Source of the DNA: an uncultured Eubacteriales bacterium
GTDB lineage: Bacteria > Bacillota > JAAYKD01
DNA length: 64,000 bases
Assembly: GCA_964425745.1 (NCBI GenBank)
Contig: CAYRNW010000006.1
Span: 1,499-65,498, forward strand
Direction of reading: 5' to 3'
Every line of letters starts with the position of its first letter. Position 1 is the first letter of the stretch. A model generated the notes under the pieces. The model was not told where the DNA came from. It ran no database searches and saw only the letters and a program-made list of their open reading frames with translations. Position numbers and translations under genes: made by a program. Below are positions 5,027 through 51,156 of this stretch, in pieces.

Positions 5027-5055
5027 GAAACCTCCAATCTGGGCAGTATACAGCC

Positions 5056-5096
5056 CTTACTATGTAATGGAGTTAAGGTTGTGAATTGAACGAAAA
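5056..5096. repeat. Copy 1 of conserved ~41-nt intergenic motif CTTACTAnnnAATGGAG(G/T)T(G/A)A-N9-TTGAACGAAAA
   Basis: See the finding. Located between polA and DUF4406. Confidence 0.6.
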
Positions 5097-5099
5097 GAC

Positions 5100-11182: not shown

Positions 11183-11383
11183 GTGAGCGATAAAAGCATT
11201 GAAAAATGGTCTACATTAAAAGAAGTACAAGAATATCTCGGTGTCGGCCGCGAGACCATTCTGCAATGGATCGCAAAAAGAAATATGCCCGCCTATAAGG
11301 TAGGCAGGCTCTGGAAATTCAAACTGTCCGAGGTTGACGACTGGATTCGTTCGGGCGGCGCTGACGACAGGAATGCAGAATAA
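11183..11383 (+). CDS. Excisionase/AlpA-like MerR-type HTH DNA-binding protein
   Basis: 66 aa with LKEVQEYLGVGRETILQWIAKRNMPAYKVGRLWKF. GGAGGA SD 7 nt before GTG 11183 (the ORF-track TTG at 11168 lies in the SD). Confidence 0.6.
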   Translation: MSDKSIEKWSTLKEVQEYLGVGRETILQWIAKRNMPAYKVGRLWKFKLSEVDDWIRSGGADDRNAE

Positions 11384-21430: not shown

Positions 21431-24013
21431 ATGGATAAAGCATATCAATGGGTGCCATTTTATGAGGCACTCGCCGATAAATTGCTTACATACAGCGATA
21501 AACGGGATGAACTCTTTGCTTTAATGAAAAAGCTTTCATCGGAGCAGCCGCTGATGAAATATCTCCACTTCGAGCGTGAAGACTGGTGGGAACCCCGCCA
21601 TCATCAAATCGATCCGTTTTCTGTGATTGGAGTTATGAATCGCGGAACAACAGATGCAAACCGTATTGTCTTAGCCAAGGTACTCGCAAACGCATTTGAC
21701 ATACAGATTCCTTCGCCTACGCAGTTTGCGGGTATACCTGTACTCAATAACATGAACTCATTTTTTAATGGAACAAATGAATTATGGGAGCTGTTTTGCC
21801 TTGCAATAAAATCCGCTGAAACCGGTGAGTTTTCAGACAAATTTAAAAAAGCATTCGATGACGCCATTGCAGTATCTGGAAATGGACTGGCTTATATTAC
21901 GATGGGCTTGTATTGGATTCGGCCACATGTTTTTATGCCTCTTGATGGCAATTCGCGTGCTTATATTTCTACACATTTCGGTGTATCTGCACCAAGCGGA
22001 AACTGTAGTGGTGAAGAATACGTAACTTTTTTGAATACACTCAAAACGAAAATCCATGAGCAGGCGCCTGACCTGACATTACCTGAAATTTCGTATACTG
22101 CTTGGACGAAGAAGGATGCCAATTCGCTCGACGGTACAAGCACAACTACCGCAGTCGTTGATGAGAAACGGCAGCGGGCGGCATTTATACAATGGTATAC
22201 GAATAATGTTGGTTCGTCTAATTCTGCTAATACCATCGCGGTTGCTATCGGTAAAGCACGGCTTAAAAGCGGACGAGCAGTGTTTGCTATTGCTGATTTT
22301 AATGAACTTGATTCTGCGATCAAGAGCAGCGGCCTTGAAGGGTATTTTCAAGCCAGCGGTGGCGATTACTCAAAGATGGATATAGTTTTTGACATTGATC
22401 CAACTACCCAACGTGATGACTTGAAAAGTGGAATCAAGCACTATCTCAGTTTTCTTAAAAGCATAGGAGAATTAAGTTCATCAAGCGGAACAATTGTCCC
22501 GCCGAATATAGCATCACGGCAGACTGGCGGGGCAAAAATGGCAAAAAACATAATTCTCTATGGTACTCCTGGAACAGGAAAAACCTATAGTACAGTGCAG
22601 TATGCTGTTGCCATTATTGAGGAGAAGTCGATCGCGGAGGTAAAATCTGAAGATTACGGAGAAGTATTCAATCGTTACTTAAAATATAAAGATGACGGAC
22701 TGGTCGCTTTTACCACATTTCACCAATCGTTTGGCTACGAAGAATTTATTGAGGGTATACGCCCGGTCGTGTCTTCGGAGGAAAAAGCAGAATCGGTACG
22801 CGAAATTGAATACGAAGTACATGATGGAATTTTCAAGGCATTTTGCGATAAAGCTGGAACACCTATTGGCGGCGGAACAAGTGTAGACTTAGGAATTGGT
22901 AAAAGCCCTACCGTCTGGAAGGTTTCACTTGAAGGTACAGGTGACAATCCTACAAGAGCCGAATGTATGGAGAATAATCATATCCGCATCGGATGGGACA
23001 GCTATGGCGAAACCATATCTGATGCTACAGATTACAGCAAGGATGGAGGCAGAACCGTTCTCAACGCATTTTACAACAGGATGCAAATCGGCGATATTGT
23101 TATGTCTTGTTATTCCAGCAAAACAATAGACGCGATTGGTGTTATTACTGGCGAACCAGAATGGCACGATGAGTATCAGAACTACAAACGGTTGCGTAAT
23201 GTGAAATGGCTTGTAAAGGGTATTAACGAAGATATCGTCGATTTCAATGCCGGAAAAGCTATGACGCTTTCATCTGTATACAAGTTATCAGTTTCAGTGT
23301 CAGATGCATTGCAAATACTTAGGAAAGTGAAGCCAAGCCTATTCACACAAAAGGTAAAAATTCCAAACCGTGTATTTATCATTGATGAGATCAATCGAGG
23401 GAATATCTCAAAAATATTTGGTGAATTAATTACCCTAATCGAGCCGTCAAAGCGCATAGGAGCAAGCGAACAGCTACGCGCTCTTTTGCCATACTCGGGC
23501 CAAAATTTTGGTGTGCCCGATAACGTCTACATCATTGGCACCATGAACACCGCCGACCGCTCTATCGCGATGATAGACACCGCGTTGCGCCGTAGATTTG
23601 AATTTATCGAGATGCAACCTGATTCTGCTACGCTTAAAGATGTTCTTGTTGACGGTATAGATATTGCTGAGATGCTCGACACCATCAACAAGCGTATAAC
23701 CGTATTGCTCGACCGTGAGCACACCATAGGACATTCCTATTTACTGCCGCTTAAAACAGACCCGACGATTGAAAATCTTGCGGCGATTTTTGAAAACAGA
23801 ATAATCCCGCTTTTGCAAGAGTACTTCTACGACGATTACGAGAAGATTCAGCTTGTATTGGGTGACAATCAGAAGCCGGATGATAGCACTCGCTTTATCG
23901 TGAAAAAGACAGATGCTGTTAAGCTGTTTGGAAACGCGGACGTTGATTTCCCGGAGTATTATGAGGTTAACAGCGAAGCTTTCATGAGGATTGATGCCTA
24001 TGCGTTCCTGTAA
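21431..24013 (+). CDS. mcrB: McrB-family GTPase (type IV restriction) with long N-terminal extension including a PUA/EVE-like modified-base reader domain
   Basis: AAA+/GTPase motifs NIILYGTPGTGKTY, VFIIDEINRGNISKIFGE and IIGTMNTADRSIAMIDTALRRRFEF. The upstream segment VWKVSL..IRIGW..FYNRMQIGDIVMSCYS..IDAIGVITGEP is EVE-like. Confidence 0.85.
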   Translation: MDKAYQWVPFYEALADKLLTYSDKRDELFALMKKLSSEQPLMKYLHFEREDWWEPRHHQIDPFSVIGVMNRGTTDANRIVLAKVLANAFDIQIPSPTQFAGIPVLNNMNSFFNGTNELWELFCLAIKSAETGEFSDKFKKAFDDAIAVSGNGLAYITMGLYWIRPHVFMPLDGNSRAYISTHFGVSAPSGNCSGEEYVTFLNTLKTKIHEQAPDLTLPEISYTAWTKKDANSLDGTSTTTAVVDEKRQRAAFIQWYTNNVGSSNSANTIAVAIGKARLKSGRAVFAIADFNELDSAIKSSGLEGYFQASGGDYSKMDIVFDIDPTTQRDDLKSGIKHYLSFLKSIGELSSSSGTIVPPNIASRQTGGAKMAKNIILYGTPGTGKTYSTVQYAVAIIEEKSIAEVKSEDYGEVFNRYLKYKDDGLVAFTTFHQSFGYEEFIEGIRPVVSSEEKAESVREIEYEVHDGIFKAFCDKAGTPIGGGTSVDLGIGKSPTVWKVSLEGTGDNPTRAECMENNHIRIGWDSYGETISDATDYSKDGGRTVLNAFYNRMQIGDIVMSCYSSKTIDAIGVITGEPEWHDEYQNYKRLRNVKWLVKGINEDIVDFNAGKAMTLSSVYKLSVSVSDALQILRKVKPSLFTQKVKIPNRVFIIDEINRGNISKIFGELITLIEPSKRIGASEQLRALLPYSGQNFGVPDNVYIIGTMNTADRSIAMIDTALRRRFEFIEMQPDSATLKDVLVDGIDIAEMLDTINKRITVLLDREHTIGHSYLLPLKTDPTIENLAAIFENRIIPLLQEYFYDDYEKIQLVLGDNQKPDDSTRFIVKKTDAVKLFGNADVDFPEYYEVNSEAFMRIDAYAFL

Positions 24014-25277
24014 TAAAACCTTCACTATAACAGAATACGGTGGGTTTACGCGCGGCATAGCGTCTTACGGTTATCAGGCATTGCCGGAAAAAACATTTGA
24101 TGCGCTTGAAGCTTTTATCCTCGCCAACAATACTGATACGGGAACCGAGGCAGTCGAGCTGCTGTCTCTTTCTGTTCGCCGAGGCATTGGCAAGATTATC
24201 ACCGCCAGAAATTACGTCGGGCTGATAACGATGGCTGACGGTACTGTCATAGAGATTCTCCCTAAAGTTATGGGCGGCGATATTACCGAGGAAGAGACGA
24301 AGCGAATTTTTCTCGAGATGCTAAAAACGCTAAAGGACGTGACATTTAAAGACTTCAATGTTTCAAATCTTCATGCTGACAACCTGAGCCTTCTCGATAT
24401 TTTTATAAAAATGTTTCTCGACGAGGTCACTATTCTAACAAAGCAAGGAATAAAAGCGGCATATACACCCGTCGAAGCAAATGAACGGTTCTATAAAGGG
24501 AAGCTGCTGGCTTCACAGAATATTAAATATAATCTGGTTAACAAGGAACGATTTTTTGTTCGCTACGACGATTTCAATATAAACAGACCGGAGAACCGTC
24601 TGATCAAGTCCACACTACGTTTCCTGCGCAATACTTCAAATGACGGGCGTAACCGACAGAACGCAACCCGATTAATAAATTTCTTTGATGGTGTGGAATA
24701 TTCCAAAAACTATGATTTGGACTTTTCAAAGTGTATTGTCGACCGCAGCATGAGCCACTACGACAAGGCTCTTTCGTGGTGTCGCGTTTTCTTGCGAGGA
24801 AATAGCTTCACCGCCTTTGCAGGAAGCGAGGTTGCTCTTGCTCTTCTTTTTCCAATGGAAAAGGTGTTCGAGAGTTTTGTTGCTGCGAAGTTTCGCAAGC
24901 ACATTGGTAGTGGTGTTACCTTGCGGACACAGGATGCCAGATACAGTCTGTTTGATAGTCCGGCCCGAGCTTTTTCCCTTCGTCCTGACATTGTGTTAGA
25001 ATTTGACGGCCGTACAGTAGTTCTGGATACCAAATGGAAGCTGCTCTCAGACAATGCCAGAAACAGCGGTATTTCACAAACTGATATGTACCAGATGTAT
25101 GCTTACGGCAAAAAGTATGAAGCAGACAAAATTGTCTTGCTGTATCCCTATTCCGATGCTGTGCGCAAAACTGATATCAGGTATGCCTCAGATGACAATG
25201 TAAAGGTCGATGTTACCTTCATTGACCTTAAGAATGCGGATAACAGTATTTCGAAACTATTAGGGGAGGTGTGCTAA
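24000..25277 (+). CDS. mcrC: McrC-family nuclease subunit (PD-(D/E)xK)
   Basis: RPDIVLEFDGRTVVLDTKWK catalytic motif. Overlaps the mcrB 3' end. Start chosen at the ATG 9 nt after GAGGA (alternatives 23991 and 23994). Confidence 0.8.
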   Translation: MRSCNKTFTITEYGGFTRGIASYGYQALPEKTFDALEAFILANNTDTGTEAVELLSLSVRRGIGKIITARNYVGLITMADGTVIEILPKVMGGDITEEETKRIFLEMLKTLKDVTFKDFNVSNLHADNLSLLDIFIKMFLDEVTILTKQGIKAAYTPVEANERFYKGKLLASQNIKYNLVNKERFFVRYDDFNINRPENRLIKSTLRFLRNTSNDGRNRQNATRLINFFDGVEYSKNYDLDFSKCIVDRSMSHYDKALSWCRVFLRGNSFTAFAGSEVALALLFPMEKVFESFVAAKFRKHIGSGVTLRTQDARYSLFDSPARAFSLRPDIVLEFDGRTVVLDTKWKLLSDNARNSGISQTDMYQMYAYGKKYEADKIVLLYPYSDAVRKTDIRYASDDNVKVDVTFIDLKNADNSISKLLGEVC

Positions 25278-26308
25278 TGCCATTTACCATCGTCCGTCAG
25301 GACATAACAAAAATGAAAGTTGACGCTATAGTCAACGCTGCCAACACCGACCTGCAAATGGGCGGTGGGGTTTGTGGAGCTATCTTCAAAGCGGCGGGAG
25401 CGGCACAGCTTCAAGCTGCCTGTGATAAACTCTCCCCGATTAAAACGGGTGAGGCGGTTATTACATCAGGATTCGACCTGCCCGCTAAGTTTGTTATTCA
25501 CGCGGCAGGCCCCGTTTATAGATATCAGAATACCGAGCAGAGTGAAAAACTACTACGTTCCGCATACATGGAGTCGCTCCGGCTTGCCATCGAAAACAAC
25601 TGTGAAAGTATTGCGTTCCCATTGATTTCAAGCGGGATTTACGGATACCCAAAAGACGAAGCCCTTCAAGTGGCTACTGCTGCAATTCAAGATTTTCTCA
25701 TCAACAACGATATTGATATAACACTTGTAGTGTTTGATAAATCGGCATTTACTGTAAGCCGCGAGCTGCTCGGTGAAGTCGAAAGCTACATAGATGAGCA
25801 TTACGTTGATATACACCAAATAAAGCGTCGGAAGCTGCTTGATGTAGAACGCCAAGCCATATCCGAAGCTGATGAGCGTGCTAGTATACTCAACGAGCCT
25901 ATTCTTGAAGATATGCTCGCTCCTATTGGCGCTCCTGCCCCGCTTGATGATTTAGTTGGCAATCTTGATGAGCCATTCTCTCAGATGCTCCTGCGTCTGA
26001 TTGATGCCAAAGGAATGACGGATGTTGAAGTATACAAACGTGCCAACCTTGACCGAAAATTATTCTCTAAGATCAGAAGCAACAAAGGATATATGCCAAG
26101 CAAGCGCACAGCTATTGCTCTTGCTGTAGCGCTGAAGTTATCTCTCGACGAAACCGACGACCTCTTGGAACGAGCGGGCTATGCACTATCTCACGCCGTC
26201 AAATTCGATGTTATTGTGGAGTACTTCATCGCAAACGGTAAGTACGATGTTTTTGCGATCAATGAAGTGCTGTTTGAATACGACCAGCCGCTGTTGGGAG
26301 GGTGCTGA
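25277..26308 (+). CDS. Macro-domain (ADP-ribose binding/processing) protein fused to C-terminal XRE-like HTH domain
   Basis: Macro signature AIVNAANTDLQMGGGVCGAIF and ISSGIYGYP. C-terminal MTDVEVYKRANLDRKLFSKIRSN..SKRTAIALAVALKLSLDETDDLLERAGYAL is HTH_XRE-like. TAATG overlap with the mcrC stop. Confidence 0.75.
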   Translation: MPFTIVRQDITKMKVDAIVNAANTDLQMGGGVCGAIFKAAGAAQLQAACDKLSPIKTGEAVITSGFDLPAKFVIHAAGPVYRYQNTEQSEKLLRSAYMESLRLAIENNCESIAFPLISSGIYGYPKDEALQVATAAIQDFLINNDIDITLVVFDKSAFTVSRELLGEVESYIDEHYVDIHQIKRRKLLDVERQAISEADERASILNEPILEDMLAPIGAPAPLDDLVGNLDEPFSQMLLRLIDAKGMTDVEVYKRANLDRKLFSKIRSNKGYMPSKRTAIALAVALKLSLDETDDLLERAGYALSHAVKFDVIVEYFIANGKYDVFAINEVLFEYDQPLLGGC

Positions 26309-26310
26309 TT

Positions 26311-26766
26311 ATGGATTATGTTTATGAAATAGATTCACTAATTCAAAAAGCTACATTAGCAATTGGTAAACCAATTTTTAAGGACAAGTATGAAATCGTT
26401 GATAGAGGTTTACCGCATATTCCACCTACTCGATTGCCTGATGGGAAGATGGCAATCTACATGTTTTTGCTCGGTGACGAATTTCTAAAAATCGGAAAAG
26501 CTAATTATAGAAGTAATGCAAGATTCTGCAGTCAACATTATGGTTTGAATGCACCATCAACACTTGCAAAATCACTGCTTTCGGATAGTGAGATGCGCAG
26601 CTTAAACATTACTTCTTCAAATATAAAAAATTGGATTAAAACGAATTGCCGACGAATCGACATAATTATTGATGCAGACTTAGGTGTTTTTGCTTTGGAA
26701 TTGATTGAGGGGATAATGCATTATAAATATGAACCCAGATATGAGGGTTTTGCATCTCAAAGGTAA
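26311..26766 (+). CDS. Small GIY-YIG superfamily (T5orf172/MUG113-like) protein
   Basis: AIYMF-(10)-LKIGKA-NYRSNARF..QHYG resembles GIY..YIG..R of the T5orf172 domain. GGGAGGG SD 8 nt before ATG 26311. Begins 3 nt after the macro-HTH stop. Confidence 0.5.
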   Translation: MDYVYEIDSLIQKATLAIGKPIFKDKYEIVDRGLPHIPPTRLPDGKMAIYMFLLGDEFLKIGKANYRSNARFCSQHYGLNAPSTLAKSLLSDSEMRSLNITSSNIKNWIKTNCRRIDIIIDADLGVFALELIEGIMHYKYEPRYEGFASQR

Positions 26767-26769
26767 TTT

Positions 26770-26786
26770 GTCGCTTCTGAAGCGAC
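26770..26786 (+). promoter_or_regulatory. Perfect hairpin GTCGCTTC-t-GAAGCGAC between GIY-YIG gene and vWA gene (weak terminator/processing site, no U-tract)
   Basis: 8-bp inverted repeat read directly. No T-run follows. Confidence 0.3.
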
Positions 26787-26845
26787 CGCCGGTCTCAAGT
26801 AAAGTAGTATTCTAAGATTACAATAAATCTTAGGAGGCTACCAAA

Positions 26846-27499
26846 ATGAAAAAGGGATTAACTGAACTGGTATTCATACTCGACAAAAGTGGCTCAATGA
26901 GCGGACTGGAAGCTGACACTATTGGTGGTTACAATTCAATGCTCGCAAAGCAGAAGGCAGTAGATGGTGAGTGCTACATTACAACGGTGTTGTTTGATAA
27001 CAACTATGAGCTACTCCATGACCGTATTGACATTAAAGCAGTCAGCCCGATTACTGACAAAGAATATCAGGTTGGCGGATCGACAGCACTTCTTGATGCA
27101 ATCGGCAGAACGATTCACAAAATTGGTAACGCTCAAAAGCACACTGCCGAAGATTACCGCGCCGAAAAGGTAATGTTTGTAATTATCACAGATGGCGAGG
27201 AAAACTCTAGTCGTGAATATACTGCCGAAAAGATCAAAGCACAGATTGAGCGGCAAAAAGAAAAGTATGGTTGGGAGTTTATCTTCCTTGGGGCTAATAT
27301 CGATGCGGTTCAGACCGCCGGGAGGTATGGAATTGCTCCTGACAGGGCAATTGACTATCTAGCTGATAGCGAAGGTACGGAACTGAACTTTAAGGTAATG
27401 GCAAGTGCTGTGGCGACATTTCGCGAGTCGGGAACGGTTGACGAGACTTGCTTTGAGGAAATCCGCAAGGATGTGAAGCGTCGAGGAGGTCGTAAATAA
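26846..27499 (+). CDS. von Willebrand factor type A (vWA) domain protein
   Basis: MIDAS motif VFILDKSGSMSG at the N-terminus. 217 aa. TAGGAGG SD. Confidence 0.8.
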   Translation: MKKGLTELVFILDKSGSMSGLEADTIGGYNSMLAKQKAVDGECYITTVLFDNNYELLHDRIDIKAVSPITDKEYQVGGSTALLDAIGRTIHKIGNAQKHTAEDYRAEKVMFVIITDGEENSSREYTAEKIKAQIERQKEKYGWEFIFLGANIDAVQTAGRYGIAPDRAIDYLADSEGTELNFKVMASAVATFRESGTVDETCFEEIRKDVKRRGGRK

Positions 27500-28350
27500 T
27501 GCTCGGAGCGATTATAGGAGATATCGTAGGCTCGGTCTACGAATGGCATAACATTAAAACAAAAGACTTCCCGCTGTTCCGCGACGACTGCTTTTTCACG
27601 GATGACACCGTGATGACCATTGCTACAGCAGACGCTCTAATGAGCGGCGTTAAAGCCGACGATTTCATTAATGCCTATAAAAAGTGGGGGCGATTCTACC
27701 CAGATGCCGGGTACGGTGGTCGCTTCGGCAGTTGGATACATTCTAATGACCGTAAACCCTACAACTCTTGGGGTAATGGTTCGGCGATGAGAGTATCACC
27801 TTGCGCTTGGGTGATGAATTGCGGATTCTATGGGCGTACAGGTTGTTGGCCATCAAACGGTTGGGAATGTGTAACAAAATCTGCTGAGGTGACGCATAAC
27901 CACCCTGAAGGAGTCAAAGGCGCACAAGCTACCGCAGTAGCGATATTTTTGAGCCGGTTCTACGCCGGAGGTCACGCCTTCGATTATTGCCAGCCGTGGT
28001 CGGTTGAAGAATTGAAAGATGAAATAAAAAAACTGATAGAATCTAATTTTGGATATGATCTATCCCGGACGCTTGACGAAATTCGTCCAATTTACCGCTT
28101 CAATGAAAGCTGTCAGGATACGGTACCACAGGCGATTATTGCTTTCCTTGAAAGTATGGACTTTGAGGATGCAATCCGAAATGCTATCTCCCTCGGAGGT
28201 GACAGCGACACGCTTGCTGCTATTACCGGTAGCATTGCAGAAGCCGCCTATGGTGTGCCAGATTGGATAAGGGACAAGGCTTTGAGTTATCTGGACGCAC
28301 CGTTGAGAGATGTCTATAATCGGTGGACATCATACATAGAGAACAATTAA
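27499..28350 (+). CDS. ADP-ribosylglycohydrolase (ARH/DraG family)
   Basis: N-terminal GAIIGDIVGSVYEW, GNGSAMRVSP, and C-terminal GGDSDTLAAITGSIAEAAYG, all ARH family hallmarks. TAATG overlap with the vWA gene. Confidence 0.85.
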   Translation: MLGAIIGDIVGSVYEWHNIKTKDFPLFRDDCFFTDDTVMTIATADALMSGVKADDFINAYKKWGRFYPDAGYGGRFGSWIHSNDRKPYNSWGNGSAMRVSPCAWVMNCGFYGRTGCWPSNGWECVTKSAEVTHNHPEGVKGAQATAVAIFLSRFYAGGHAFDYCQPWSVEELKDEIKKLIESNFGYDLSRTLDEIRPIYRFNESCQDTVPQAIIAFLESMDFEDAIRNAISLGGDSDTLAAITGSIAEAAYGVPDWIRDKALSYLDAPLRDVYNRWTSYIENN

Positions 28351-28420
28351 AATTATGGGAGTGAAATAGGGAGCAATTTATAGCGATTTTCTTTGACGTT
28401 TAAGAGCTAAAACAATAATG

Positions 28421-28514
28421 TTGACATATTCCCGCGAACGAGCAAAAAACGTTGACCTGTTTCCGCGAACAGATAATACCCATAAAAACCATGCTCGACC
28501 TATTCCCGCGAACG
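28421..28514. repeat. Three direct repeats of a 20-bp unit TTGAC(A/C)TNTTYCCGCGAAC(G/A)
   Basis: Copies at 28421-28440, 28452-28471 and 28495-28514, spaced 31 and 43 bp. Confidence 0.7.
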
Positions 28515-28722
28515 TGCAAAATGAAAAATACAGACCAGACATCGGGATGAGCCTATCGTTCCATGTTGAGACGGTAGTCTGGATGTCAAGGGTGGTGAAG
28601 TAGAGCAAAAAGGTGCTGATAATCGCTGAAAAAGAACCATTTTGAGTGGAAATTCATGAAAAATATTGCATGGTTTCCGAGTAAGTGGGAACACATCCAA
28701 TTTAGTGATTTTTGTTTGACAG

Positions 28723-28820
28723 ATCAAGATAGATGTTTTGCATTTTTGAGGGTTCACGAGTAGTCAAGTTAGATATTTAATGGTTTTTAGCGGGCGCGAG
28801 AGGTCAAGTTAGATGTGAAC
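28723..28820. repeat. Three direct repeats (RTCAAGWTAGATRT ... TTTTTG) with about 40-bp periodicity, iteron-like
   Basis: Copies beginning 28723, 28764 and 28803. Each is followed by a T-run 8-12 nt downstream. Confidence 0.7.
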
Positions 28821-28873
28821 CGTTTTTGTGAGAAGAATGTTATACAAAAAAGGTCTGATTGAGGGGTTATAGC

Positions 28874-29944
28874 ATGATTGATGAACAGAATATCCTTTTT
28901 AGCAAAGAAAACACGATTGAAAAACTAATGTCGAACAATCGCAAGGGGAATGAGGACTTTAATGAAACGATGTTATCCACACTACTTCTAATGGGGTGGG
29001 TGCTAATTTTACTGCCGTTGTTGGCGGTTCCCTTTAGCAACACGAAGGAGGGTGTTATCCCTGCATATCTGCTAGCATTCGCAGCATTTCTTGCTTTGTT
29101 TCTATTATATAAAGTTCCAAGCATGAAAAAGTATACTCTAGTGGGATTGTATCTCGGCTTCTCGGTTTTGTTCCTTTTAGGGATTTACCTTAGCGTTATT
29201 CACTCACCCAATATGCGTGCGACCGTTTTACTTGGTGGTTTCATTCTCATGCCACTTAGTTTTATTGACCGACTACATCGGAAAATACTGTTTCTAGCTC
29301 TCTGGTTAGGGGTTCATACCTTATTGGCTTACTATCTGAAACCATTATTGGTACTTGATGATACGATTAATTGCCTTATGGCAGCTATTCTAGGATGTTT
29401 TCTCGGCAACACATTGATGCGGGTGCGGTTGGAAAGCCTTGAGGCAAGACGCTTACTCATTATAGAAAAAGGAACCGATGAGTTAACAGGGTTACCTAAT
29501 CGACGCAAACTATATGAGACTCTGACGATGTTGGAGGGTTCTGATGTTGAAAAGCCTACTGGAATCATGATGCTCGATATTGATCACTTTAAAGACTTCA
29601 ACGATCAATACGGACATGTTCCTGGTGATAGATACTTGAGGTTCTTTGCCGAAGTATTAACCAATTTCACAAAGGTTTTTCGTTGGCATTTTTATCGTTT
29701 TGGCGGTGAGGAATTCGTCGCAATAGCTTATGGTTATGATAAAGATGAGTTATACTCCATAGCTGAAAGTCTTCGTGTGGCTGTTCAAAGAGCAGACATG
29801 GAAGGGTATAGCACTACCGTTAGTATCGGTGTTGCATACTGCGGCGAAGAGCAAGTTGCAAATTACGAAAAGGTAATAGAGCGAGCGGACAATGCCGCGT
29901 ATACAGCAAAACGCTCGGGGCGGAACATTGTGTGCATGGAGTAA
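28874..29944 (+). CDS. Membrane-anchored GGDEF-domain diguanylate cyclase
   Basis: 5-6 N-terminal TM helices. GGEEF active site (RFGGEEFV). GAGGGG SD 7 nt before ATG 28874. Confidence 0.85.
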   Translation: MIDEQNILFSKENTIEKLMSNNRKGNEDFNETMLSTLLLMGWVLILLPLLAVPFSNTKEGVIPAYLLAFAAFLALFLLYKVPSMKKYTLVGLYLGFSVLFLLGIYLSVIHSPNMRATVLLGGFILMPLSFIDRLHRKILFLALWLGVHTLLAYYLKPLLVLDDTINCLMAAILGCFLGNTLMRVRLESLEARRLLIIEKGTDELTGLPNRRKLYETLTMLEGSDVEKPTGIMMLDIDHFKDFNDQYGHVPGDRYLRFFAEVLTNFTKVFRWHFYRFGGEEFVAIAYGYDKDELYSIAESLRVAVQRADMEGYSTTVSIGVAYCGEEQVANYEKVIERADNAAYTAKRSGRNIVCME

Positions 29945-30036
29945 ATTCGATAGGAGATAAGGAAGCGAAAATCGTCTTCCAACATATTCACAATGTTGAT
30001 TATTTGTATTAAAAGAGGTATAGAAAGAGGTAAAAT

Positions 30037-30696
30037 ATGTCAATTGTTACTGTAGATTTCGATGGAACTTTATATAAGCATAATTCTGTAAAGGCGATGC
30101 TTAAAGCCGGAAAGAAAGTATTTACTTTAAAGCAATGGAGTTTAATAGCCATAAATTTTCTTTCCGGTTGTGTAAATAGAGATAAAGGAGATAAAATAGA
30201 CCTTCGAGTTATTTTACTAAAATCGTTTTTTTACCAAATGAAAGGAAAAAGCGTTGAAGAAATGCATGCGTTTTTTGGGGCCATACTCAATACGGATCGT
30301 CAGAATATTAATTATAACTTGGTGTTAAGAATAAAGAATCATTTGGAAATGGGAGATCGCGTGATCATTTTATCGGGAGCCTTGCAACCTTTTCTTGAAG
30401 AAGTTATACGGCAGCTGGGAATTCGGGCAGATGCAATTGGGACCTCTTTACTTTATGATGAGAGTGGAATCTGTACAGGTGAAATCGGTAGAATAAACCG
30501 TGGAACTGATAAAGTAGAAAAATTGAAGCTTTGGATAGAGGAAAATGATGCCAGCGGAGAACCGCTTTGGGCATATGCAGATAGCGAATCAGATATTCCT
30601 CTACTGGAATTTGCAGATAAGGCAGTTGTTGTTAACCCGACAGAAACAATGAAAAAAATTGCTGAATCAAAGGGATGGGAAATTTTTATTAACTAG
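30037..30696 (+). CDS. HAD-superfamily hydrolase (HAD-IB/phosphoserine phosphatase-like)
   Basis: Motif I VDFDGTL at the N-terminus. 219 aa. Confidence 0.7.
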   Translation: MSIVTVDFDGTLYKHNSVKAMLKAGKKVFTLKQWSLIAINFLSGCVNRDKGDKIDLRVILLKSFFYQMKGKSVEEMHAFFGAILNTDRQNINYNLVLRIKNHLEMGDRVIILSGALQPFLEEVIRQLGIRADAIGTSLLYDESGICTGEIGRINRGTDKVEKLKLWIEENDASGEPLWAYADSESDIPLLEFADKAVVVNPTETMKKIAESKGWEIFIN

Positions 30697-30728
30697 GCAC
30701 AAAACTCTTGACAGACCCGACAGACTCT

Positions 30729-32420
30729 TTATGCTCGTTTTGATCTAAAAGTCGCAATAATCAATGCCACTAAAGTAATTGCTGCCAGGACTAGGCTGAT
30801 GCTTAGTGTTATGCTTCCGACAGTTATAAAATCAGTTTTTTCCAGACCAGTTAAACTCAATCCAACGAATGTTCCTGCAATTACAATACTTAAAGATAGT
30901 AAAATTAGGCTGATTGTTAACCGCGTAAAAGCCCTGTCAAATTTCAGCACATACCGTTCTGCCTCTTCCATTTTAAATTGTAATGTAAAGTTATCCTGTT
31001 CTATCTTCCCAAGAAAATTTAGCAAAACAGACGGGAGCTTTCTAACTAGATTACCATAATCCATTGCCCCACTCAAGATTTCCTTGCTGATTTTCTCGGG
31101 GGAAATTAAATTGAAAATTAATTTACCTGCGATTGGTTCAGCAATTTCCAGAATATTTAGATCTGGATCAAGTTTCTCAACTAACCCTTCCAAAGTAATA
31201 AGGGATTTAGCAAGCATAGTAAATTCCCCTGGGATTTTAATATTGTAAGTATATGCTAAATCGAAGATATCGTTGAAAATTTCACCGATATTTATTTCAC
31301 TCAATGGGAGAGACAAGACTTGATCTCTTAATCGGTCAATATCTTTTTCTAGTTTCCTCATATTGATACTTTCTGATGTTGCATCAAGTTCAATAATTGC
31401 TTGTATGATTAGTTTACTATTTTTTAAAGTTATTCCGACCAGCATTTTCAGGAATTGGTTTTTTCCATGAGGGCTTAATTGCCCTACCATACCTAAATCT
31501 AAAAAAGCTATGGTATTATTCTCAAGCACCATTATATTACCGGGATGAGGGTCCCCGTGAAAGAAACCATCTCTCAATATCTGATATAAAATAGAGTTAG
31601 CTAAGTTTTTTGCTATTATTGTCCTATTTAACCCTAATTGATCTAACGCTTCAAAATTCTTTAACGAGGTTCCTTTGATTTCTTCCATTGTTAGAACACG
31701 ACTCGTAGTATGAATCCAGCTAATGTTCGGAACAATTACATTAGCATCATCCTTAAAATTCACTTTAAACTTCTCAGCATTTTCTCCTTCCAATCTGAAG
31801 TCTAATTCATTTGTTATGGTGGTCTCAAACTCTTCCGCCATTTTGCTGAAGCTATATAGTTTTCCAAACCTAGTTCGATTATCGACAAAATCAGCTAAAT
31901 CTTTTAGTATCCCCAAATCAAGTTCGATATTTTTCTCTATATTTGGCCTTTGAACTTTTACTACCACATCTTTCCCCGATAATAATTTAGCACGATGAAC
32001 TTGCCCAATTGAAGCTGCAGCTATAGGCTCCGCAATAAATTCTCTAAATATGTTTTCAAGTTTATCTCCCAATTCATATTCTATTACTTTCTTTACATCA
32101 CTAATTGGAAATGGGGCGACCGCATCTTGTAGTTTTTCCATCTCGTGTACAATTTCGCGAGGTAATAAATCCGGTCTAGTGCTCATAATTTGTCCGATTT
32201 TTATAAATGTCGGTCCCAACTCTTCGAAGGATAATCTAAGTCTTTCACCTACTGATGATTTTATAAGTTCCCTTTCATTATATTCTTTGGGTTCCTCCTC
32301 AATTTTAAGATGTTTTAAGATACCCAATTTATCCATTAAAGCGCTAAATCCATGGTTTGCAAAAGTCCTAACAATCTGCTTCGACCTCTTAAGCTTTCTA
32401 TATCTGCTAACCGCCATCAT
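30729..32420 (-). CDS. ABC1/UbiB family atypical protein kinase with C-terminal TM helices
   Basis: AASIGQVHRAKL and FFHGDPHPGNIMV kinase-like motifs. 563 aa. Confidence 0.85.
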   Translation of the reverse strand: MMAVSRYRKLKRSKQIVRTFANHGFSALMDKLGILKHLKIEEEPKEYNERELIKSSVGERLRLSFEELGPTFIKIGQIMSTRPDLLPREIVHEMEKLQDAVAPFPISDVKKVIEYELGDKLENIFREFIAEPIAAASIGQVHRAKLLSGKDVVVKVQRPNIEKNIELDLGILKDLADFVDNRTRFGKLYSFSKMAEEFETTITNELDFRLEGENAEKFKVNFKDDANVIVPNISWIHTTSRVLTMEEIKGTSLKNFEALDQLGLNRTIIAKNLANSILYQILRDGFFHGDPHPGNIMVLENNTIAFLDLGMVGQLSPHGKNQFLKMLVGITLKNSKLIIQAIIELDATSESINMRKLEKDIDRLRDQVLSLPLSEINIGEIFNDIFDLAYTYNIKIPGEFTMLAKSLITLEGLVEKLDPDLNILEIAEPIAGKLIFNLISPEKISKEILSGAMDYGNLVRKLPSVLLNFLGKIEQDNFTLQFKMEEAERYVLKFDRAFTRLTISLILLSLSIVIAGTFVGLSLTGLEKTDFITVGSITLSISLVLAAITLVALIIATFRSKRA

Positions 32421-32453
32421 TAATCACCACACAATCTAATCTCATTCTCTGTT

Positions 32454-32500
32454 AAAAAAAGCAGATATAGATTGATAGAAGATCTTTCATCTATATCTGC
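32454..32500 (-). terminator. Rho-independent terminator downstream of degV (12-bp stem GCAGATATAGAT/ATCTATATCTGC followed by U7 on minus strand)
   Basis: Inverted repeat 32461-32472 / 32489-32500, with A7 at 32454-32460 on the plus strand. Confidence 0.7.
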
Positions 32501-32557
32501 TTCAGCGTTTTAAAGCTAAATAATCCTATTGAAATTTCAGTGAACCAGACAGCAGAG

Positions 32558-33424
32558 TTACCTTTCTTTTCCTAGAAAAAACAAACCCACTAGTCCCGGC
32601 CCGGTATGGGTTCCAATAATTGGCCCCAGAATATTTATAACTACGTCATGGGGTGTTGTCTCGCTTAGAATCAGTGATTTTAGATACTCCGCATCTTCTA
32701 GGCAATCTCCATGGGCAATAAATATCCGCTGTTCTTCTGGGTTAACTGCCCGAGTTTTATATTCATCAAATAAAGCTCTAATTGACTTCTTTCTACCTCT
32801 GATTTTTTTTGCAACGATTAGACTCCCATCATTAGAAACAATTAAAACCGGTTTAACTTCTAACAACCCCCCTATAGCTGCGCTGGCTGTTGAAATGCGC
32901 CCCCCTCTCTTTAGATGCTCCAGGTTATCTATAGTAAACCAATGATTTACTTTTAGTTTGTTAAACTCAATCCAGTCTACGATTTCTTGTTTAGATTTTC
33001 CTTGTTTTAACATTTCGCATGCATAAGATACCAATAAGCCCTGACCAATCGAAGCGCTTTTCGAATCGATTACAGTTATATCCGCTTCTGGATTCATTTC
33101 CATAAGCTCATTTCTAGCCAGAACCGAACCATTAAAGGTTTCACTTAGAGCAGATGAAAAACCTATATAGATAATTGAATCTCCTTTTGAAACAAACCTA
33201 CTAAATTCATTAACAAAGGTAAAAGCAGTAATTTGTGCAGTTACCGGCATACCGCCCTTTCGAATTTTATCGTAAAAATCTTTATGGCTTAAGGATTTTC
33301 CAAAATCATCTGTGTAGTTAATCCCATTTAGTTCAAAGGTAAATGGGATAATATGTATATTGTTTTGGTAGATATATTCGACGGGTAAATCACAATTCGA
33401 ATCAGTAACTATAACTATTCCCAT
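32558..33424 (-). CDS. DegV family fatty-acid-binding protein
   Basis: N-terminal GIVIVTDSNCDLP, a DegV hallmark. AGGAG SD 8 nt before ATG 33424. Confidence 0.85.
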   Translation of the reverse strand: MGIVIVTDSNCDLPVEYIYQNNIHIIPFTFELNGINYTDDFGKSLSHKDFYDKIRKGGMPVTAQITAFTFVNEFSRFVSKGDSIIYIGFSSALSETFNGSVLARNELMEMNPEADITVIDSKSASIGQGLLVSYACEMLKQGKSKQEIVDWIEFNKLKVNHWFTIDNLEHLKRGGRISTASAAIGGLLEVKPVLIVSNDGSLIVAKKIRGRKKSIRALFDEYKTRAVNPEEQRIFIAHGDCLEDAEYLKSLILSETTPHDVVINILGPIIGTHTGPGLVGLFFLGKER

Positions 33425-33470
33425 TTCAACCACTCCTAAAATAAGGGATTTTAACTAACCAATCAAATGT

Positions 33471-33821
33471 CTATTTTCTGAGCTCACTAATATCCTTTTT
33501 TGTCGCTATTTCTTTCTCTTTTAAAACATCGGTTAAAACTTCTCTTATAATCCTTTTTAAGTCCTCTTTCTCTATAATATCCTCTTTGCGAGCAATATCT
33601 TTTGCTTCCAGTGCTTCTAAAATTTCATCCTTGACCATTTTCTTAAAATCTTCTTGTTGCTCTTCGCCTTTTTTGACTAAGTCATTAACCAGGTCTTTAG
33701 CGTCTTTCCTAGCGACTTCCCCTTTATTCACCAATTCGTCAACTATATCTTCGATTTTTTCTCTTGAGTAAGAGAATAACCCTAACCCTAAATTGAGCGA
33801 CTTTTCGATTAATCCGGACAT
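33471..33821 (-). CDS. Phasin-like protein (PHA granule-associated family)
   Basis: GLIEKSLNLGLGLFSYSREKIEDIVDELVNKGE matches the phasin family pattern. GTGAGGT SD before ATG 33821. Confidence 0.5.
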   Translation of the reverse strand: MSGLIEKSLNLGLGLFSYSREKIEDIVDELVNKGEVARKDAKDLVNDLVKKGEEQQEDFKKMVKDEILEALEAKDIARKEDIIEKEDLKRIIREVLTDVLKEKEIATKKDISELRK

Positions 33822-33846
33822 AATAAAATACCTCACTTTCATATAT

Positions 33847-34422
33847 TTAATCAAATAGAATTAGCATAGCGTTTAAAGCTTCTGGTAATTTTTTATCTTG
33901 GTCAAGTAAAACCTGAATACCCGTTCCAAACATCGACCCCAAAATCAAACGAGACAAATCCTTAGTAGCATAGCCTTTTAATTCCTTTAATTGAAGGTCA
34001 TTAAAAATATACGTTTCAATCATGTTCGATAAATCTTTAAACAATTCACTCAGTAGACTACTGAATACTGGAGACCAAATGGCTAAACCAGTAAAATCAT
34101 AGAGCAATCTGAAAAGCTCTGGATTATTCTGCAGCATGTTTTCGAAGTAATTAATCAAGCCAATTACTCTTTTTCTAGGCGAGATTTCCTGCTTTAATGA
34201 CGCTTCAATCTCTTTTAAATATCTTGATGTCATCATCCCTACAACCTCTTTAAACAAACCCTCCTTATTTTTAAAATAATAATTCAATTGACTTAAAACT
34301 ACTCCTGCCTCATCGGCAATATCTCTCATTGAAACATTTGCATAACCTCTAGTTGATATACAGGCATAAGCTGCTAGTAATATTTTCTCTGATTGAGTTC
34401 TTACATTTGTTCCAATAATCAC
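33847..34422 (-). CDS. TetR/AcrR family transcriptional regulator
   Basis: N-terminal HTH ILLAAYACISTRGYANVSMRDIADEAGVVLSQLNYYF. GTG start with GAGGTGA SD. Confidence 0.85.
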   Translation of the reverse strand: MIIGTNVRTQSEKILLAAYACISTRGYANVSMRDIADEAGVVLSQLNYYFKNKEGLFKEVVGMMTSRYLKEIEASLKQEISPRKRVIGLINYFENMLQNNPELFRLLYDFTGLAIWSPVFSSLLSELFKDLSNMIETYIFNDLQLKELKGYATKDLSRLILGSMFGTGIQVLLDQDKKLPEALNAMLILFD

Positions 34423-34696
34423 TATAACTTCACCTCACAATTCGGTCATTCGTCCGATTTAATTTTATTGTATTTTGATGATTTTGTCAATAACAAAAAT
34501 TATGATTTCTAGTTCAGATTGCTGTAATCGTATCACCTATTATAATTGTCAGCGAAAGCGAATATTGGCGCCGTTGTAGTTGCAAATATCAGTTCAGTTG
34601 TGAACTTGATACTGGTATTTTTTAGTGTAGCATAATCTCGCGTTTCAGACTCTACTTTTAAGGAGCACTCCAAGATTGCTGTTCTAGTTGAGCCAA

Positions 34697-34733
34697 TAAA
34701 AACCCCTCGAGCAAGAACTCGAGGGGTTTTTAT
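34697..34733. terminator. Bidirectional rho-independent terminator (CCCCTCGAG-loop-CTCGAGGGG flanked by A5/T5)
   Basis: Read directly. Lies immediately 3' of the minus-strand hsp20 gene. Confidence 0.8.
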
Positions 34734-34754
34734 TACCTTATCTAACAATCTACC

Positions 34755-35207
34755 TTATTCAATTTCAATTTTGCGGTTGGAAACAGTTTGGGTTTCTTTG
34801 GGAACCGAGATGAAGAGTACACCTTCTTCCAATTTGGCTTTAATGTCGCTGGTCTTGACATTGGCTAAACGGATACTGCGGCTCATAGAACCATAGCGGC
34901 GTTCGCGGTGGATAAAGTTCTTTTCGTCTTTATTCACTTCTTCGTTCCGGCGGACAACAATGCAGAGGCTGTCGTTTTCCATACCTACTTCAATTTCTTC
35001 TTTTTTCACACCCGGTAACTCTGCCTCAATGCGGTACTCGGAATCGGTCTCTTCAATGTCAATTTTGAAGGTATCACTTACCAAGCTTCGGCCTGACAGC
35101 AGATTATCGCTGAAAAAGTCGTCAAGCATGTTGTAAAAATCATCAAAACTTGAACTTGAGCGTGCGAGACCGGTGTTCCTTCTGTTAAAGGGAATCAGTC
35201 CTGACAT
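34755..35207 (-). CDS. Hsp20/alpha-crystallin family small heat-shock protein
   Basis: Alpha-crystallin domain FKIDIEETDSEYRIEAELPGVKKEEIEV..GVLFISVPK. AAGGAG SD 9 nt before ATG 35207 (the ORF-track start at 35342 has no SD). Confidence 0.85.
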   Translation of the reverse strand: MSGLIPFNRRNTGLARSSSSFDDFYNMLDDFFSDNLLSGRSLVSDTFKIDIEETDSEYRIEAELPGVKKEEIEVGMENDSLCIVVRRNEEVNKDEKNFIHRERRYGSMSRSIRLANVKTSDIKAKLEEGVLFISVPKETQTVSNRKIEIE

Positions 35208-35360
35208 GATCAACAACTCCTTTTTGTGTTTTTTTGTTAGCACTCTCTCTTGACGAGTGCTAACTATTTTATACCACTGGATGGCTTTCTTGTCAAGAGA
35301 GTTCACAAAAACTTCAAAATTTGCCATTCGGCAAAATCTCAACCAATTGGGCCTTCCATT

Positions 35361-36908
35361 TTATTCTATAATCACACCGGACTTGAATTCCACAGTATAT
35401 TTGTCCTCATAAACAATAACCTTCTCAATTAAATGCCGGACGATCCCATCGTCATAGTTAATCAAGAAAGAAGTTTGTTGCTGCATAAAATTACTCATAT
35501 CGGAAATGCGTTTCTTCAAATCTTCTTGCCTCATATTATTTAGCTCTGCCTTTTGCTTTTCTTCCTTCAGCCTTGCAATCTCATCAGCAACATCATCATA
35601 ATCTGCTTTGGAGTTCACCCGTTTCACGAGCTTAGCCTGAAGAATCTCTAATTGATTAGCAACTTCTGTTAGATCGGGGCTTTGCTCTTCTTGTAAGGCT
35701 TTCTGTATATTTTCCTGCAAGATCTTAAGATAGTCATTCTTCTCGCACAACACCTTGTTAATCGCTTTCACTAGAGTCTCCTCAAGATTTGGTTCACTCA
35801 CTGTTCTTGCATCGCAGAATACCCCGGTATTTTCAAGCCGACTTACACATCGCCAGACAACTGACTTTTTGCCATGGTTGTTCCAATGAACGCGTCTAAA
35901 GACCTCGCCACAATTTCCACAAATGATCTTGTTCGCTAAGGTGTGATTGCTGCTGAATTTACGATTCTGGCCATTAGGACTGGTGTGAATGATCCGACGC
36001 CTAATCAATTCCTCTTGTACTCGCATGAAGATTTCACGCGGGATAATGGCTTCATGGCTATTTTCTACATAATACTGAGGAACGATACCGTGGTTTTTCA
36101 CTCTAGTTTTATTTAAAAAATCTGTGGTATAAGTCTTTTGCAAAAGGGCATCACCGATATACTTCTCATTTCTTAAGATCTGATTAATGTTACCTGTATG
36201 CCACTTGGTACGACCCGAACCGTTCTTGATGCCATCCGCCATCAGACCTCGAGCGATTTTAAGAAGACTATTACCTTCGAGGTATTCTCTATAGATGCGC
36301 TTTACGGTTTCTGCTTCTTCTGGAACAATCACTAAGCGCTTGTTCTCATCTTTGGTGTAACCGAGAAACCACTTGCAGTTCACCTGAATCTCACCTTGCT
36401 GGTAGCGATATTGCAAACCCATTTTCACATTCTGACTTAAGGATTGACTTTCTTGCTGGGCCAGGGAAGCCATAATGGTAAGCATGACTTCACCTTTAGA
36501 ATCCATGGAGTTTATGTTCTCTTTCTCAAAGAAAACCGGAATACTTTTTTCTTTCAACTGGCGGATAAACTTTAGACAATCCAATGTGTTTCGGGCAAAT
36601 CGGCTGATTGACTTGGTAATGACCATGTCAATATTCCCAGCCATACACTCGTCAATCATGCGGTTAAACTCTTCACGCTTTTTGGTGTTGGTACCGGAAA
36701 TACCGTCATCAGCGAAGATACCGGCCAATTCCCAATCTGGGTGTCCTGTAATATAAGCTGTATAGTGATCTATTTGGGCTTCATAACTGGTTGCTTGTTC
36801 CTCGCTATCGGTAGAAACTCGGCAATAAGCTGCTACTCTTAGTCTTGGCTTTTCTTCACCTTTGACCTTTCGGGTGTGTTTCCTTGCGGGGATAAGGGTT
36901 ACATTCAT
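35361..36908 (-). CDS. Large serine recombinase (resolvase catalytic domain + recombinase domain + zinc ribbon)
   Basis: [16 protein letters not shown] catalytic Ser region. Recombinase domain. C-terminal C..C...C..C region and coiled coil. AAAGGAAG SD 8 nt before ATG 36908. Confidence 0.85.
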
Positions 36909-36913
36909 TCCCG

Positions 36914-37324
36914 TCACTTCCTTTCGATTAAACTATAAGCATACTCTGCTTGTTGAAATGGGTCGTCAAAATGCTTTAGACCTTCGTTCATTCGGAAGGA
37001 GGTAGGGAAGACGACTTCTTTTTTATTTTTGAGGGACTTAGTTCTACCAAGTTTCAAAGCGCGCCGTTCTCGTTCTTCCTGAACTTTCATGAACAATTCC
37101 TCATCAATAATCGGTGGGTAGAAATCATCACCCAGATATCGTTTGTTCTGAAGAAACAAGCCAACTGCAGAATGAGTTGCATTCATTTCCGCTTTTTTCG
37201 CAGCTGAAGATAAGGAGTCTCCAGATAAGTAGCAAATAAAAAGCATCCGAACCTGTGCGGCAGTGCTCTCTTCAATTACCGCTCTCGCATTCTCAATCTT
37301 ATACCCATAAGGAATGTAACTCAT
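36914..37324 (-). CDS. Recombinase-domain-only fragment or partner (serine recombinase middle domain, lacks catalytic N-terminal domain)
   Basis: [55 protein letters not shown] matches the Recombinase (PF07508-like) domain. TAATG overlap with the upstream recombinase. Confidence 0.55.
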
Positions 37325-50057: not shown

Positions 50058-50060
50058 TTG

Positions 50061-51155: not shown

Positions 51156-51156
51156 G

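Follow-up and report, generated by a model that had tools for sequence, protein, structure and literature searches.

In a 64,000-nucleotide stretch of DNA from an uncultured Eubacteriales bacterium (contig CAYRNW010000006.1; hereafter the window), a gap at positions 28351-28873 separates an ADP-ribosylglycohydrolase (ARH) gene on the left from a GGDEF diguanylate cyclase gene on the right, and it carries two families of repeats, which we call F1 and F2. The original prediction, made from the letters alone, placed the gap where a defence island meets an AT-rich GGDEF region, and proposed that the repeats were binding arrays for a regulator of the diguanylate cyclase, remnants of a transposon end, or an origin-like set of iterons. 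We show here that the window contains two related prophages lying head-to-tail in the 3' end of host rlmD (rumA), the gene for a 23S rRNA m5U-methyltransferase, and that both repeat families are conserved elements of a site of roughly 400 bp. The gap is very probably an attP-type (attP-equivalent) phage attachment site, of which the repeats form part.

The gap and its repeats

The claim that the gap is free of genes held up: no gene is called between 28350 and 28874 in any metagenome assembly that carries the stretch. Its open reading frames (ORFs) are mechanical ones only, and the ORF at 28418-28603 simply ends in an rlmD tail, described below. An Rfam scan of 27.5-30 kb returned sub-threshold chance matches only, and the stretch from F1 to the core of the site, folded as a single strand, gave z = 0.02 and no structure. 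Pairing between F1 and an inverted F1 copy as an RNA stem was considered and ruled out, as the two show identities without co-variation. A scan for sigma-70 promoters and terminators found nothing inside the gap.

Both claimed triples are real. The F1 sequence first reported (TTGACMTRTTYCCGCGAAC at 28421, 28452 and 28495) has 3 matches in the whole 64-kb window with up to 3 mismatches allowed, against 0.03 expected from shuffled sequence. The F2 sequence (TCAAGWTAGATRT at 28724, 28764 and 28804) has 3 exact matches against 0.00 expected, at an exact spacing of 40 bp, and looser F2 matches elsewhere in the window are at chance level. Neither family has a copy in the window outside the gap, and when F1, F2 and the palindrome GTTC-N4-GAAC were searched for across the window, nothing rose above chance elsewhere, unlike what is expected of an operator.

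The F1 units lie on the plus strand in the left (P) arm of the site: F1a at 28421-28439 (TTGACATATTCCCGCGAAC, readable as codons V-D-I-F-P-R-T), F1b at 28452-28470 (TTGACCTGTTTCCGCGAAC, V-D-L-F-P-R-T) and F1c at 28495-28513 (TCGACCTATTCCCGCGAAC, L-D-L-F-P-R-T). F1b contains a quasi-palindrome, CTGTT-N6-AACAG. The F2 units, also on the plus strand, are found at 28724-28736 (TCAAGATAGATGT, with the full unit extending over about 28718-28757), 28764-28776 (TCAAGTTAGATAT) and 28804-28816 (TCAAGTTAGATGT); relatives carry homologous (A/T)TTAGATGTC units that match them. Three features had been overlooked: a single inverted F1 in the right (P') arm (28687-28701, reading ATTGGATGTGTTCCC on the minus strand), a dyad GACATC...GATGTC, and a 42-nt remnant of the 3' end of rlmD. 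The inverted F1 lies about 170 bp from the F1 array, inside the same site, and is the sole inverted copy.

The junction in rlmD

We compared the window with public assemblies of the same species, found through the two proteins that flank the gap. Rightward of 28557-28562, the window and the assemblies L012, L010/L013 and L014 are 99.9% identical, and leftward of it they are unrelated. L012 has no island: pcrA, ligA, murB and a gene for a 462-aa TRAM/m5U-methyltransferase of the rlmD/rumA type are followed directly by the GGDEF gene. The junction corresponds to the last codons of this intact rlmD, which ends in PVDMFPQTTHVETVVLMSRVVK and a stop. The 462-aa protein has TRAM and tRNA_U5-meth_tr domains, and its C-terminus (VDMFPQTTHVETVVLMSRVVK, then the stop) falls at the junction, which places the insertion at the 3' end of rlmD. 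L010/L013 carry a different island there (MmeI-like, T5orf172 and another McrBC), and L014 carries a third, distinct one. In L010 (9437-9700) the alternative island ends in two tandem units of about 125 bp, each comprising a fragment that codes for VDMFPQT, a GACATC box and an end resembling the core; the arms of an attachment site seem to have accreted or been duplicated there.

The proposed boundary is therefore confirmed in two ways: the GC content of 0.40-0.48 drops to 0.34-0.37 further right, and the comparison with related strains that the original prediction had recommended puts the recombination junction at 28557-28562. Because the junction divides the two repeat families, F2 lies in DNA common to all strains and F1 in the last 140 bp of the window's island. 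Repeats found nowhere else, in a region conserved in strains that lack the island, would have pointed to a simple promoter; we found that F2 is kept in the island-free L012 and that F1 is absent there, and, far from being confined to this locus, both families recur in dozens of viral contigs.

Immediately right of the junction, on the plus strand, is a phage-borne copy of the last 13 rlmD codons (28562-28603; 42 nt, encoding HVETVVWMSRVVK, with the stop at 28601-28603). GATGTC, which this tail contains, is present at the same position in only 7 of 75 rlmD genes from other bacteria, and therefore the tail comes from the phage. For the same reason we dropped the idea that the tail is the native one and that the left prophage junction (attL) regenerates a functional bacterial site (attB) through it. 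In a single lysogen, the phage-borne tail completes the host rlmD.

Assemblies L004, L005, L006, L017 and L102 (the last a species-representative contig from a metagenome-assembled genome) break exactly at the junction, and metagenome contigs break here because it is the attachment site of prophages. In the sister species L024 and L103 and in the distant L026, rlmD is followed by this right arm; these are lysogens viewed from the attL side. Scans of metagenomes and genomes with the rlmD protein for the attL of the window phage returned only the sister species L024 and L103 and the contig L102, which ends at the site.

The attachment core

The junction lies within a 50-bp core of the type used by large serine recombinases (28538-28587), with the outer motifs GACATC at 28538-28543 and GATGTC at 28582-28587 placed about a centre at 28562/28563. 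Relatives have the same imperfect dyad of about 50 bp in the form GACATCAAT-N32-ATTGATGTC, and in 17 of 42 P arms GAYATY precedes the His codon by exactly 24 nt. A search of viral contigs for the exact core, using the window's own variant, gave no match, but searches with a looser core and with a pattern for the rlmD tail succeeded.

The point at which homology breaks between the lysogen variants and the empty or otherwise occupied site is inside the core, both at 28557-28562 and in L095, which diverges immediately after GTTGAGACAGTT. The strain comparison puts the crossover to the right of the first two bases of the His codon, and it would lie to the left of the point where L095 diverges, that is, somewhere in about 28563-28576 as far as these alignments can tell. 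Recombination thus appears to take place within the dyad core at the His-Val-Glu-Thr codons of rlmD, the spot used by phage phi-m46.1 of Streptococcus pyogenes and by rumA-targeting integrative and conjugative elements (ICEs).

The same module in viral genomes

Only one GenBank phage has DNA similarity to the gap: PV036457.1, a complete 64-kb genome of Candidatus Heliusvirales (Ca. Heliusvirales), which is 78% identical over F1 and the core. It holds the whole arrangement internally and contiguously, with three F1 units, the core with an rlmD-like tail (HVETVVLMSRVDK, then a stop), an inverted F1 and F2-like units, and it has defence cargo on both sides of the site.

Searching viral contigs by pattern yielded 58 loci that contain the core anchor, in 42 of which the left arm is not rlmD. 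These 42 arms contain 40 F1-type matches, against a background of 0.0058 per 175 nt, and the matches are concentrated around -140, -108 and -65 relative to the His codon. Sites homologous to F1a are those at about -140 in other phages, and the copy at about -65, in the place of F1c, is the commonest across the viral contigs. On the other side, F2 cores cluster at +170, +200 and +230, and 22 of 53 related loci have a full-length inverted F1 between +125 and +160.

Conservation follows the repeats closely. The mean pairwise identity is 0.44 upstream of F1a and 0.80-0.88 in the F1 units (with 0.88 for F1b, which is better conserved than any other block of the P arm); for the spacers it is 0.68-0.78 and for the two halves of the core 0.76-0.86. 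Conservation thus sets in abruptly at F1a. Comparison of the window, L197 and PV036457 gives an identity of 0.75-0.84 for the P arm but of only 0.35-0.45 for third codon positions of the integrase gene nearest the site (LSR_I, see below); the LSR_I genes of these three are saturated at synonymous sites. Since the P arm is so much more alike than the third positions of LSR_I, the F1 arm must be under constraint, or else be exchanged as a unit.

The F1 consensus over 39 distinct sites is GTTGACATGTTCCCGCGAACGG, which resembles the host rlmD sequence GTTGATATGTTTCCGCAGAC (V-D-M-F-P-Q-T) lying 5-21 nt to the left of the crossover. Each F1 unit reads V/L-D-[ILM]-F-P-[RQ]-T, even though the frame differs among the three. 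An F1 weight matrix has its top match here in 75 of 75 rlmD genes, a result that is partly circular, as any D-x-F-P coding stretch fits, and hence descriptive only. In many phages F1 takes the palindromic form CTGTTC-N4-GAACAG, whereas the native gene has no palindrome. Judged by this likeness, F1 is probably a copy of the host-side half-site that the serine integrase must recognise. It seems to derive from the half-site of the target gene itself, and would be an example of an attachment site built from its target. F2 contains GATGTC, oriented as it is in the outer motif of the core half-site next to it, though the likeness is modest.

The recombinase module

Three overlapping genes on the minus strand, transcribed toward the site, form a triplet that encodes a 523-aa large serine recombinase (LSR), a 148-aa protein with a recombinase domain only, and a 518-aa LSR. 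LSR_I, the one nearest the site (35361-36917), has the Pfam domains Resolvase, Recombinase and Zn_ribbon_recom. The 148-aa protein (36914-37360) matches only Pfam PF07508, the recombinase DNA-binding domain, and LSR_E (37324-38895) is 36% identical to LSR_I. The counterparts in PV036457 are 76% (LSR_I), 55% (a 143-aa protein in the same position as the 148-aa one) and 62% (LSR_E) identical. Linked LSR genes are thus present on the same element as the site.

In viral contigs the site usually has such a triplet for a neighbour. In 11 viral loci the triplet is found 0.65-2 kb away, directed toward the site, and the short middle protein is present in every one of these triplets. In the window the triplet is 6.8 kb from the site, with cargo intervening. 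In a minority of viral loci (L242, L278 and L289) there is a single LSR gene that ends 130-190 nt from the site; the streptococcal ICE layout, a single integrase with the site inside its own 3' end, is not the one found here. LSR fragments lacking the catalytic domain lie near the site in L097 and L024. No tyrosine integrase (PF00589) was found among the window's genes, in the 3 kb to its left or the 9 kb to its right, or among the Pfam-scanned proteins of PV036457, and the remaining PV036457 annotation lists serine recombinases only.

Two prophages in tandem

To the right of the gap come low-GC cargo, the serine-recombinase triplet, and then, in 39000-64000, amidase, tail, capsid, protease, portal and TerL genes; beyond the window's right edge (L182, 1-8747) the contig goes on with TerS, HNH, SNF2, VapE and PolA. 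The left 10 kb of the window is the replication module of another phage (DUF2800 nuclease, single-stranded DNA (ssDNA)-binding protein, PolA and VapE), and the module at 6-6344 is 80-84% identical in DNA to the one past the right edge. After this module the left phage has plus-strand cargo up to F1: HTH_17, a type I restriction-modification system, Hachiman, McrBC, and a run of genes from Macro to ARH. Across the gap, therefore, the right arm of one prophage meets the left arm of the following one, which is an attP-type arrangement.

The prophages resemble Ca. Heliusvirales. The marker set of that group is present in its order (DUF2800 nuclease, ssDNA-binding protein, PolA, VapE primase-helicase, SNF2, HNH, TerS, TerL, portal, protease and capsid, with cargo separating TerS from TerL), and the closest GenBank phage, both by attachment-site DNA and by LSRs, is a Heliusvirales genome, so that membership of the group may be proposed tentatively. 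What had been described as the boundary of a defence island is the end of a prophage, and the defence genes are cargo on both sides of an rlmD phage site. We suggest that the signature of F1 array, GACATC-N38-GATGTC core, rlmD tail and F2 array marks the integration site and the ends of cosmopolitan gut prophages.

Possible role of the repeats

An attP-type site in rlmD whose repeat arms serve as extra recombinase-binding sites is, in our view, the best explanation overall and a reasonably probable one. At this site the last ~13 codons of rlmD are replaced by those that the phage brings. Taking the accessory subsites of small serine resolvases and the multi-site ends of IS607 as analogies, we tentatively suggest, short of calling it likely, that the repeats could bind the phage's own recombinase proteins as accessory sites; of the roles considered, this one is the likeliest. 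The proteins in question would be LSR_I together with LSR_E, and/or the 148-aa protein that consists of a DNA-binding domain only. Bound at the repeats, they would help to build or regulate the integration or excision complex and so set its efficiency or direction. A more specific version, which we consider somewhat doubtful, is a composite site in which the 50-bp core is ringed by half-site mimics bound by the paralogous integrases or by the DNA-binding-domain-only protein. The arrays would then be host half-site copies in the case of F1 (three direct, one inverted) and three copies of the phage-side outer motif in the case of F2. If this were true, these would be the first accessory 'arm' sites controlling a large serine integrase, and the arrays might set directionality or allow insertion beside a resident prophage, which would explain the tandem arrays at the hotspot.

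Several points weigh against recombinase-binding arms. Bxb1, phiC31 and A118 work on simple sites. Large serine integrases studied to date are described as acting on simple 40-50-bp sites without accessory sites (10.1101/2025.05.02.651858), and because the characterised ones use such sites alone, the role we suggest for the repeats is without precedent among them. F1 is missing from 22 of 42 P arms at the rlmD target, and from the L014 arm and phi-m46.1 as well; with about half of the P arms lacking it, F1 is not needed for rlmD recombination in general. The P' arm is weakly conserved outside the motif cores (0.55-0.70), and F2 might serve a cargo promoter instead. Single-nucleotide polymorphisms at 28564, 28579 and 28581 split the island-free strain from the rest and fit more than one crossover position. 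Finally, attL is not a normal substrate for serine integrases, which makes the tandem arrangement of the prophages hard to account for.

It has to be asked whether the arrays do anything at all. F1 could be decayed fragments of the rlmD 3' end, left by imprecise excision or serial integration, and F2 decayed right half-sites, the whole being inert relics held in common through shared descent while the 50-bp core suffices. The V-D-[ILM]-F-P-[RQ]-T reading of F1, with variation largely at third codon positions, is what such fragments would show; the two tandem units of L010 look like accretion scars, the right end of phi-m46.1 has two core remnants about 110 bp apart, and half of the P arms at the rlmD target do without F1. 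Relics would hardly be expected, however, to keep the number, order and distances of F1 (about -140, -108 and -65) and the 30-bp steps of F2 while the integrase genes reach synonymous saturation, or a P arm that is 0.75-0.84 identical against 0.35-0.45 at synonymous sites. Moreover, conservation ends abruptly at F1a, where cargo begins, and F1 has gained the palindrome CTGTTC-N4-GAACAG that the native gene lacks, which points to selection on DNA binding and not to decay. We therefore consider relics unlikely. Slightly less likely still is that F2, possibly with the inverted F1, is a promoter array of the adjoining cargo operon (here GGDEF-HAD), bound by a phage or host transcription factor, with only F1 and the core being recombinational. 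The first gene past F2 does read away from the site in 7 of 7 loci examined, where it encodes GGDEF, CopZ-like (twice), 423-aa, Phd/YefM, XRE-type and 138-aa proteins, but F2 stays constant while this cargo varies and so is not tuned to a gene. Phasing of 30 or 40 bp puts the F2 sites on one face of the helix, and -10-like elements follow the last F2 unit by 50-130 nt in about half of 29 loci; these promoter-like elements lie outside the conserved block, at variable positions. In the window a possible extended -10 for the GGDEF operon, TGtTATACA (28838-28846, plus strand), follows unit 3, but it was read by eye, is weak and was not called by the consensus scan, and no sigma-70-type promoter was called in 28600-28873. 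Nor is there another F2 copy in the 64 kb, phage regulatory regions included, and in the basic arrangement F2 is flanked by the core and the 3' end of the integrase gene, with cargo there scarce or absent. The narrower claim that the repeats are an operator of the diguanylate cyclase does not hold, as the F2 array also stands upstream of unrelated cargo (CopZ-like, Phd/YefM, XRE, a 423-aa protein and an ORF of acetyltransferase size).

Repeats on both arms (F1 three times direct and once inverted, F2 three times) are also a hallmark of the attP of tyrosine integrases, and in a lambda-type site F1 and F2 would be arm-type and Xis sites. A 66-aa HTH_17 protein of the excisionase family is encoded at 11183-11383, and the phage restores the 3' end of its target gene, as tyrosine-integrase elements do. 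The likeness of the repeats goes no further than resemblance, and we hold a lambda-type site to be very improbable: PF00589 is absent from all of the regions and proteins scanned, 11 loci show physical linkage of the serine-recombinase triplet to the site, known serine-integrase elements have their core at these same codons, and F1 resembles the core-side host half-site and not a separate arm motif. There remain the iterons of a replication origin and the subterminal transposase-binding sites of a Tn7-like or other transposon. Regularly spaced direct repeats in threes at the edge of an island suggest either, and Tn7-like elements do insert beside the 3' ends of conserved genes. Yet there is no Rep initiator nearby and no transposase in the window, the closest replication genes, about 18 kb away, are the PolA/VapE phage module, and the GC skew shows only a change of gene strand and nothing origin-like. 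The repeats travel with the recombination junction and in all relatives recur with the attachment core; they lie 24-117 nt from its outer edge (48-141 nt from the junction) and so are not terminal. A second end with inverted copies is not found within 64 kb, the only inverted copy being the one inside the same site, and the target gene is cut within its coding sequence and then repaired by the element. We give iterons or transposon ends almost no credence. Of what was first proposed, then, the edge of a mobile island and, probably, the protein-binding arrays stand, while the origin, the transposon end and the GGDEF operator do not.

Comparison with known systems

The closest parallel to the attP-type site is the rum site of phi-m46.1, with its experimentally defined 18-bp core, GCATCACGTGGAGTGTGT (PMC4288039). 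There, too, a temperate phage occupies the 3' end of a 23S rRNA m5U-methyltransferase gene and carries resistance or defence cargo beside the site, and the H-(H)-V-E codons spanned by the 18-bp core are those of CATGTTGAGACGG in the window, so that both cross over at H-V-E. In contrast, phi-m46.1 lacks F1 and F2 arrays at its ends, has another gene order and carries no triplet beside the site. At its right junction (L191, 1890-2060) there are two copies of the rum core about 110 bp apart, CACACGTGGAGTGTGT and CATCACGTCGAGTGCGT, which suggests an older remnant at the same hotspot.

rumA is also the primary target of the single serine integrases of streptococcal ICEs and CTn5 (Ambroset et al. 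2016, PMC4701971), whose integration swaps the 3' part of rumA. Unlike the arrangement described here, their rumA-specific integrase is single and the site lies within its own 3' end (PMC4701971). Serine-integrase triplets do occur in ICEs, with paralogues that all point at the target gene and sometimes have cargo between them, but they target mutT, traG or hsdM, which they disrupt (PMC4701971). In our phages the triplet is linked to rumA and has only a DNA-binding domain left in its middle member; rumA is repaired, and there are repeat arms, which are unreported for the ICEs.

The core itself is much like the sites of Bxb1, phiC31, A118/LI and TP901-1, with about 50 bp, inverted outer motifs equidistant from a central crossover, and a flanking integrase gene. 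Those sites are self-sufficient and have no accessory repeats, whereas here some 350 bp of flanking arms with 7 extra half-site-like elements are conserved alongside the core. Extra copies of a binding motif build a regulatory synaptic complex at res sites II and III (Tn3/gamma-delta, Sin) and at the multi-site ends of the IS607 family (PMC6188088), although small serine recombinases and IS607 belong to another subfamily with other motifs and another geometry, and the likeness would be one of functional analogy. Lambda-type attP sites share with ours the direct repeats on one arm and inverted ones on the other, a size of several hundred bp and the restored 3' end of the target; they differ in their tyrosine recombinase, absent here, and in having a distinct arm motif, where our arm repeats resemble core half-sites.

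A literature search turned up no accessory sites of large serine recombinases and no rlmD site for Heliusvirales, and those Heliusvirales papers whose text was searched make no mention of an integrase or attachment site of the lineage. What is new here, in a widespread lineage of gut phages, is an rlmD-targeting serine-integrase site whose repeat arms are conserved and which is accompanied by a recombinase module of three genes. Large serine integrases are prized in genome engineering for their short, simple sites, and a natural family that combines conserved accessory arrays with an integrase module of three genes would indicate a level of control that has yet to be studied.

Flanking genes and cargo

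The ARH gene (27499-28350, plus strand; Pfam PF03747, E=1e-34) is the final cargo gene of the left prophage. It is transcribed toward the site and is the last gene called before the gap in all assemblies. The GGDEF gene (28874-29944, plus strand; Pfam PF00990) is the first P'-side cargo gene of the right prophage; it is called with its start at 28874 in 9 assemblies, and its ATG at 28874 is preceded by a ribosome-binding site, GAGGGG, at 28861-28866. The cargo that it opens (28874-35342, GC 34-37%) consists of GGDEF, HAD hydrolase, ABC1/UbiB kinase, DegV, a 116-aa protein, TetR and HSP20. This low-GC block separates the attachment site from the integrase genes, an interval that is only 0.65-2 kb in most related viral contigs.

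On the left, a four-gene cassette at 25271-28350 encodes a Macro-domain protein, a 154-aa protein, a vWA-like 217-aa protein and the ADP-ribosylglycohydrolase, with no match in PADLOC. In the same place beside attP, PV036457 has a related cassette of Macro, 151-aa and 217-aa proteins followed by an HD phosphohydrolase. We regard the Macro-ARH cassette as a candidate ADP-ribose-based defence or counter-defence module. Next to it, within 21431-25277, an 860-aa McrB-like protein with N-terminal DUF8425/DUF8426 is paired with McrC; the island of L010 has at the same position another McrBC variant, with an Mrr_N/nSTAND3 N-terminus.

Host-like genes are found inside the packaging and head region of the right phage (window 55217-56930 and 58771-60157; L182 8848-13977). 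MarR and an MFS transporter separate TerL from portal, and genes for SAM synthetase, ParB-methylase and flavin reductase stand between TerS and TerL. For one Heliusvirales subfamily, auxiliary genes have been reported in the TerS-TerL interval, and the host-like inserts here match that report. In PV036457, an annotated reverse transcriptase lies beside the tail genes (49645-51435; L292 31646-33436) and is possibly part of a diversity-generating retroelement.

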